1,168 bases of DNA, taken from Escherichia coli. GTDB taxonomy: Bacteria; Pseudomonadota; Gammaproteobacteria; Enterobacterales; Enterobacteriaceae. The DNA lies in assembly GCF_003334765.1 (NCBI RefSeq), contig NZ_QOWT01000084.1. One strand, given 5' to 3'. The translations under genes and the position numbers were made by a program. Below, piece after piece: positions 737 through 767 of the stretch (position 1 is its first letter; each line of letters starts with the position of its first letter). The notes under the pieces were generated by a model. It saw only the letters and a list, made by a program, of their open reading frames with translations, had not been told where the DNA came from and did no database searches.

Positions 737-767
737 AAAATCCGGGCAATAGCCCGGATTTTATTTT
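737..767 (+). terminator. Rho-independent terminator hairpin immediately downstream of the int stop codon
   Basis: Perfect inverted repeat AAAATCCGGGC (737-747) / GCCCGGATTTT (752-762) around a 4-nt loop AATA (748-751), with a GC-rich core CCGGGC/GCCCGG and a 3' T-tract TTTTATTTT (759-767). The A-run upstream mirrors the T-run downstream, so the hairpin could terminate in either direction. Confidence 0.7.

Follow-up and report, generated by a model that had tools for sequence, protein, structure and literature searches.

A hairpin with a run of A on its 5′ side and a run of T on its 3′ side is the recognised form of a terminator that acts in both directions (Kingsford et al., 2007; PMC1852404). 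Among P4-type elements, phage P4 itself has an annotated putative rho independent terminator, that of cII, situated in the int-proximal module at the point where cII and beta converge. In E. coli K-12, the integrase gene intB of the KpLE2 / PR-Y cryptic prophage at leuX has a “primary” 3′ end at 4497967(+) in Term-seq data from MG1655 (M63, OD 0.4; read count 969). This end appears under a single one of the three conditions and has few reads, and the region published for it consists of the 50 nt upstream, ATTAATAATCCATTAAAACAGTAATCATCCCGGGCAAATGCCCGGGAATTA, and the 10 nt downstream, TTCTAGGATT (Adams et al., 2021, eLife, supplementary file 1; PMC7815308). The same data set also places a Rho termination region at 4497091 (+) and, in LB 0.4, an antisense Term-seq 3′ end at 4497144 (−), both within intB (our locus L007; PMC7815308). 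Antisense RNA therefore occurs within int in K-12. Translation is also able to interfere with terminators of this type. In a tR2 reporter, termination fell from ~90% to <10% when the distance between an upstream stop codon and the terminator was shortened from 28 bp to 5 bp, and it was restored once translation was removed, indicating occlusion by the ribosome (Li et al., NAR 2016; PMC4824070).

Here, we describe the hairpin found where a P4-like tyrosine integrase gene (int) ends in a window of 1,168 nucleotides, by which we mean the whole stretch of DNA that was analysed. The hairpin is, in our judgement, probably a symmetric, bidirectional Rho-independent terminator that is placed on the int stop codon itself.

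The Integrase Gene and Its Hairpin

The window matches the chromosomes of E. coli 042, E24377A, 55989 and O104:H4 strains at 100% identity. The full-length int product is 420 aa long in the RefSeq annotation of E. coli 042 and E24377A, its domain match is NCBIfam PRK09692 (E 1e-74), and the gene shares 72.6% DNA identity with phage P4 int over 145 nt. A tRNA-Phe gene lies 197 bp upstream of int and is oriented in the same direction (RefSeq annotation of both genomes). In E. coli 042, the window adjoins this tRNA-Phe gene downstream of dsbD-dicD, at what we take to be the pheU position, and in E24377A it adjoins a tRNA-Phe gene downstream of yqgA, which is the pheV position. These two loci (L001 and L002, respectively) share int, the hairpin, the spacer, IS1 and the downstream genes (DUF2931, SNF2-related, AAA ATPase and S8 peptidase). 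The stop codon of int is the TAA at 733–735, and the RefSeq records of E. coli 042 and E24377A hold no annotated feature at the hairpin site. The features of the window are collected in Table 1, together with the hairpin arms of the main alleles.

Table 1. Features of the window, with positions in the 1,168-nt stretch, and hairpin arms of the int 3′ end alleles.
Feature	Position	Strand	Remarks
P4-like tyrosine integrase gene (int), 3′ two-thirds	1–735	+	Frame 1; from the ORF list
Predicted antisense U-tract UUUUAUUAUUUUAAU	726–740	−	Tail score −5.11; predicted 3′ ends ~726–734; putative function
Hairpin 5′ arm AATAAAATCCGGGC	734–747		GC core 742–747, A-rich 734–741; repeat search and folding
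Second in-frame TAA (tandem stop TAA TAA, 733–738)	736–738	+	Within the hairpin 5′ arm; read from the sequence
Hairpin loop	748–751		AATA on the + strand, UAUU on the − strand; repeat search and folding
Hairpin 3′ arm GCCCGGATTTTATT	752–765		GC core 752–757; repeat search and folding
Sense U-tract UUUUAUUUU	759–767	+	Tail score −5.12; predicted RNA 3′ ends ~763–767
AT-rich spacer, 325 bp, 31% GC	768–1092		Unannotated; no credible ORF
T-rich block ATATTTTTCTTT	772–783	+	~7–18 nt past the hairpin; kept in essentially all int 3′ module alleles while its surroundings differ (alignment)
IS1A left end (IRL)	1093–1168	+	Transposase genes read away from int
Hairpin arms, window allele			AAAAUCCGGGC ... 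GCCCGGAUUUU
Hairpin arms, other pheU alleles and E. albertii			GCAGUCCGGGC ... GCCCGGACUGC
Hairpin arms, K-12 intB and many pheU/pheV alleles			UCCCGGGC ... GCCCGGGA; one extra C-G pair per arm
Hairpin arms, L100 allele			UAAUUCCCGGGC ... GCUCGGGAAUUA
Hairpin arms, Enterobacter and Siccibacter			AUUCUCCCGGC ... GCCGGGAGAAU

An initial annotation of this DNA had placed a symmetric hairpin at 737–767. A repeat search in the window bears this out and makes the element slightly larger, with arms of 14 bp that are 100% complementary, enclose a 4-nt loop and together span 734–765. The GC core, CCGGGC/GCCCGG, is flanked by AATAAAA on the 5′ side and by TTTTATTTT on the 3′ side, and the A-run (737–740, reaching 734) and T-run (759–767) described in the annotation can both be read directly from the sequence. 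The stem starts at the second base of the int TAA stop, and the GC core lies 6 nt past the stop. For 737–767, whose folding had been proposed as a check, the free energy is −18.0 kcal/mol (z −4.96) in the + orientation and −18.1 kcal/mol (z −4.25) in the − orientation; in neither case does any of 200 dinucleotide shuffles fold as well. The longer segment 725–780 (56 nt) reaches −21.1 kcal/mol (z −7.1) on the + strand and −23.9 kcal/mol (z −5.95) on the − strand.

The hairpin was also compared with described RNA families and repeats. When the complete window is searched against Rfam at E ≤ 1, no family reaches its gathering score; BSnc120 (39 bits, gathering score 114) and Leu_leader (34 bits, gathering score 50) were rejected as families, being sub-threshold matches of the kind given by generic hairpins. 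A dispersed palindrome of the REP/BIME type was likewise rejected. With a 101-nt query around the hairpin, 3,347 E. coli genomes are matched in part at the ends of integrase genes, at a median of one place per genome; the hairpin goes with int and is not a dispersed repeat.

Predicted Termination Signals on Both Strands

Potential terminators were scored by the TransTermHP rule (PMC1852404), in which each T contributes a factor of 0.9 and each other base a factor of 0.6, starting from x0 = 1, and the values are summed over 15 nt; the maximum of the function, for an all-T tail, is about −7.15. A candidate has a tail score of −2.5 or lower and a last stem base other than T; hairpin energies were obtained with ViennaRNA. 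A simple terminator scan flags the hairpin on the − strand only, because on the + strand the T-run is swallowed into the maximal stem. When the stem is restricted in the TransTermHP style to the GC core plus one A-U pair, both strands pass. The best site on the + strand, 741–758, has a ΔG of −13.5 kcal/mol and the tail TTTTATTTTCAATAT (score −5.12), and the best site on the − strand, 758–741, has a ΔG of −14.1 kcal/mol and the tail TTTTATTATTTTAAT (score −5.11).

The sense strand has the elements expected of an intrinsic terminator. There are six G-C pairs with an A-U extension, the full hairpin folding at −18 to −21 kcal/mol (z −5 to −7); the U-rich tract of about 7–9 nt that such a terminator should have directly 3′ of the stem is present as UUUUAUUUU; and the hairpin is found at the end of a transcription unit, with the stem starting within the int stop. 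On the opposite strand, the 5′ A-tail provides a hairpin plus U-tract, as in a bidirectional terminator, and this antisense U-tract is complementary to the AAAA run, to both stop codons and to the final P-L-K codons of int. For comparison, the identical script was applied to 465 kb of Enterobacterales DNA comprising 80 loci around int orthologues. At a tail score of −5.0 or lower and a ΔG of −13 or lower, these 465 kb contain 30 one-way sites and 0 two-way sites; at the relaxed thresholds of −4.5 and −12, they contain 2 two-way sites. The symmetry of the hairpin is therefore unusually good and not what the background provides. The sequence clearly shows a bidirectional design, which is statistically unusual as judged from this comparison.

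A mechanism can be proposed for each direction. On the + strand, a polymerase leaving int would transcribe CCGGGC-AAUA-GCCCGG followed by UUUUAUUUU, the GC stem would form behind a weak rU:dA hybrid, and the transcript would be released at ~763–767. Release at this point would set the 3′ end of the int mRNA and leave it with a stable 3′ hairpin. On the − strand, an equally good hairpin with the loop UAUU would be transcribed, and the A-rich end of int (CCA TTA AAA, TAA TAA AA) would follow it as UUUUAUUAUUUUAAU. A polymerase arriving from the island interior would accordingly be released at ~726–734, and antisense RNA would be kept off int. The initial annotation had expected the − strand 3′ ends at about 737–745; the position of the antisense U-tract corrects this prediction to ~726–734, within the last int codons. 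From these signals we infer that the window allele itself terminates transcription, and minus-strand termination, along with a benefit for int expression or insulation, may follow from the same design.

The K-12 Homologue and a Possible Effect of Translation

The call of a sense-strand terminator is well founded. In K-12, intB ends at 4497940, and the RNA end at 4497967 falls in ...GCCCGGGAAUUA, 4 nt past the stem of the homologous hairpin. It aligns to ~763 of the window, in agreement with the + strand 3′ ends that had been predicted at 760–768. At 4 nt past the stem and 969 reads, the K-12 end could also reflect trimming by an exonuclease. No − strand 3′ end at the K-12 hairpin homologue is found in the tables of Adams et al. 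(PMC7815308). The minus-strand tail of K-12 is weak (−2.9), and because of this the K-12 data are indecisive for the minus strand. As for the original proposal of a bidirectional intrinsic terminator, the sequence features on both strands and the sense 3′ end at the homologue are in its favour, while termination on the minus strand is a prediction.

The position of the hairpin may also have consequences for its efficiency. Since the int stop overlaps the 5′ arm, the ribosome may lower sense-strand termination on translated int mRNA. Were the tR2 result to hold at this site, efficient termination on the sense strand would require the polymerase to run ahead of the lead ribosome.

Variation among Alleles

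Homologous loci were drawn from complete E. coli genomes, from one genome per species, and from metagenomes and viral contigs anchored on a conserved coding 20-mer; with this anchor, the scan of viral contigs gave 2 loci only. The 211 loci contain 36 distinct alleles that continue from the conserved int end. A core (C)CCGGGC / GCCCGG(G) hairpin is found in all alleles with the exception of a few rare degraded ones and of L181, in which IS1 stands directly after the int stop in place of the hairpin. Homologous hairpins follow int in K-12 intB, in other pheU/pheV alleles and in E. albertii, and a sequence-divergent hairpin occupies the same position after int in Enterobacter and Siccibacter.

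The outer part of the stem varies yet continues to pair, as is seen when the alleles are folded singly (AAAAU/AUUUU, GCAGU/ACUGC and AAUU/AAUU). A paired C/G indel and a switch of the core from CCGGGC to CCCGGC are likewise matched by their partners in the opposite arm. RNAalifold applied to a MAFFT alignment recovers 5 core pairs only, 3 of the 5 with double changes; it finds so few because indels misplace the outer arms, and the alleles were folded separately instead. Among int alleles that share 93–100% identity over most of the gene, identity falls to ~80% in the last 100 nt, hairpin included (650–790 compared with L003, L005 and L006). K-12 intB shows the reverse pattern, with 53–66% identity over the first 700 nt and 78–82% over the last 300. 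As identity drops with pairing kept, the hairpin region turns over fast while staying paired. From sequence, the end of int together with its hairpin resembles a mosaic or hot-spot segment, and homology between different islands stops ~30–40 bp past the hairpin. The arms of a quasi-palindrome can be corrected against each other by template switching, and paired changes may thereby arise without selection.

The quality of the tails differs widely across the alleles. Among those with a simple hairpin, no other comes close to the window allele (−5.1/−5.1) on either strand; the rest range from −1.7 to −3.75 (+ strand) and from −2.5 to −4.3 (− strand). Several leuX-type alleles have the hairpin without a U-tract directly after the core (tails −1.7 to −1.9). 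In several of these (L092, L180, L204 and L209), an outer helix UAAUCC/GGAUUA turns the T-rich block into the U-tract, with tails of −5.1 to −5.8. Because tails are weak on one or both strands in most alleles, two-way termination would be a property of this allele and not of the family. A terminator-like hairpin within 150 nt of the stop is found in 27 of 80 int orthologues of other genera, which fall outside this homology group; it is often unrelated in sequence and compares, as a count, with ~8 expected from background. Five of these hairpins are two-way by the relaxed rule. Thus, an int gene that ends in a terminator is common in the family, though not universal.

The Downstream Neighbourhood

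The initial annotation had stated that no convergent minus-strand ORF ends at the hairpin in the window, which is correct. At the IS1-free locus of CH4784 (L009), an enolase-C-terminal-like gene converges on int. The convergent ORF is absent from the window because IS1 replaced the downstream DNA. L009 carries the identical hairpin and a spacer of 97% identity, and its junction (4316–4345) reads GGGAACAG followed by GAGACAG, leading to a GC hairpin and then to the convergent gene. The stop of the enolase-like gene is ~400 bp from that of int, and the tail of its own GC hairpin is poor (−3.0). Between int and this gene, the int hairpin is the sole terminator-like site in the scan of L009. Judged as a terminator between convergent units, the hairpin of the window faces an IS1 that reads away from it, and that of L009 fits loosely, given the ~400 bp.

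The spacer is a rare sequence: of 5,426 complete E. coli genomes, just 51 contain it. No remnant of a convergent gene was found in 768–1092, where no ORF exceeds 32 aa and no similarity extends outside the 51 genomes with the same island type, and the spacer has no Rfam match. It carries a 10-bp imperfect inverted repeat at 984–993 / 1014–1023. In E. coli 042, IS1 has no 9-bp target-site duplication on its far side (L001, 9850–9870), which means that the DNA once found downstream has been lost or has undergone rearrangement. Related loci likewise have IS elements gathered shortly after int: in L004 (~3130) there is an IS1 ~95 bp past the int stop, ISKpn26 lies within the AT-rich spacer of L008 (4184–5346), and IS2 follows K-12 intB (L003, 3290–4660).

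Transcription toward int from this side was part of the original proposal, which named IS1 as one possible source. Read-through from IS1 into int would require an outward promoter at the IS1 left end. On the − strand of the window there are 5 promoter-like sites where 3.0 ± 1.7 are expected, which is not a significant enrichment. On a pheU island of O103:H2, a convergent phosphoethanolamine-transferase gene survives as a remnant whose end is 97 bp past int, and K-12 has a related yjgX pseudogene beyond IS2. Convergent transcription toward int is therefore recurrent, making an antisense stop at the end of int plausible.

One-Way or Two-Way Action

The alternative with most to recommend it is that the hairpin is one-way and ends int transcription only, its A-rich flank being a by-product to which no relevant antisense transcription arrives. 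Much of the A-run is coding (P-L-K-stop) in all alleles, and thus the symmetry is in part a by-product; indeed, the A-rich coding end CCATTAAAATA(A/G) is found in all pheU/pheV alleles whatever the flanks of the hairpin. The weak minus-strand tails of most alleles (−2.5 to −3.8) point the same way, as do the sense orientation of the sole experimental 3′ end (that of K-12 intB), the direction in which the nearest downstream element, IS1, is transcribed, and the lack of enrichment in − strand promoter-like sites. However, the AAAA at 737–740 is non-coding and allele-specific, and it is precisely this run that lifts the minus-strand tail to −5.11. Equal symmetry occurs 0 times in 465 kb, and in the IS1-free L009 the convergent gene is without a good terminator of its own. 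On balance, we consider one-way action possible but rather unlikely.

A further possibility, which we regard as unlikely, reverses the emphasis, with the hairpin serving mainly as an antisense insulator and not as the int terminator. Together with the T-rich block, it would form a structure-selected, fast-evolving boundary of the P4-type int cassette that shields integrase expression, and through it island stability, from transcription arising in any attached cargo, the window allele being a perfected version. This possibility arises because a terminating ribosome would block folding of the sense RNA, while the untranslated antisense RNA would fold freely.

The overlap with the stop codon could also mean that the hairpin is mainly a barrier for 3′-end stability or processing. 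Transcription would read through it, as the ribosome at the stop partly blocks folding, and would stop further on by Rho or other means, after which an exonuclease would trim the RNA back. The near abolition of tR2 termination at 5 bp spacing (PMC4824070) is relevant to a stop codon located in the 5′ arm, the K-12 3′ end stands just as far past the stem as a trimmed end would, and the leuX-type alleles that keep the hairpin without a U-tract suggest a role beyond canonical termination. Still, the U-tract of the window allele is near-ideal directly after the GC stem on both strands, and terminators that overlap a stop codon are common, as exemplified by the annotated P4 cII terminator. Coupling may also be loose, given that int genes are probably weakly translated as a rule. 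A role mainly as such a barrier is, in our view, quite improbable.

It is very improbable that the palindrome acts as DNA, whether as a protein-binding or recombination site or as a cruciform at the boundary of the int module, with its likeness to a terminator incidental. The end of inter-island homology just past the hairpin, the IS elements close behind it (IS1 in the window, L004 and L181, ISKpn26 in L008 and IS2 in K-12) and the divergence hot-spot formed by the hairpin region in near-identical int alleles would fit such a site. Yet the arms change with complementarity kept, which fits a structural rather than a sequence-specific site, and the arm repeats of phage P4 attP are on the opposite side of int. 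The palindrome is found at integrase gene ends, at a median of one place per genome, rather than dispersed, and the results obtained tie no protein or recombination event to it. Finally, a chance inverted repeat in AT-rich intergenic DNA, for which one could cite the ~0.8 terminator-like sites per shuffled window given by the simple scan, is refuted by the 0 of 200 shuffles that fold as well, the 0 equal sites in 465 kb, the conservation across species with pairing kept and the 3′ end mapped at the K-12 homologue.

As a symmetric terminator, the hairpin would mark where the int transcription unit ends on the pheU/pheV islands carried by enteroaggregative, O104:H4 and ETEC E. coli. Minus-strand termination, if true, would limit antisense RNA into int and could affect the frequency of island excision. 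The allele series, in which the same core is found with varying flanks and U-tracts of varying quality, amounts to a small natural experiment on one-way and two-way terminators, and a compact 32-bp terminator that is apparently symmetric could serve as a two-way insulator part. At the same time, the hairpin is an ordinary textbook element that is useful for annotation; the current view of termination is unchanged by it, and its practical value is modest.

Comparison with Known Systems

The closest described class is that of the bidirectional terminators recognised by TransTermHP (PMC1852404), with which the window hairpin shares a GC hairpin, a 5′ A-tail and a 3′ T-tail, with scores of −5.1 on both strands. 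Unlike the typical arrangement of that class, the window hairpin does not lie between convergent genes, and its minus-strand activity is predicted. K-12 intB has a homologous hairpin, UCCCGGGC-AAAU-GCCCGGGA, right after the stop and then the same T-rich block. It differs in that its tails score −2.9 on both strands, its stem has no A/T extension and its int is pseudogenised.

The cII terminator of phage P4 is likewise a hairpin that overlaps a stop codon, followed in P4 by TTTTTTATT, but it is unrelated to the window hairpin in sequence. In phage P4, int is followed by cII and no hairpin was found directly after int, so the P4 layout is not the source of the window hairpin. SEnd-seq has also revealed overlapping bidirectional terminators at convergent genes (Ju et al., 2019, as described in bioRxiv 10.1101/2022.10.23.513370), where both directions are stopped in one short region, much as is proposed for the window. 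Those sites are described as not intrinsic-like and are proposed to reflect collisions between polymerases, whereas the window carries a textbook hairpin followed by a U-tract.
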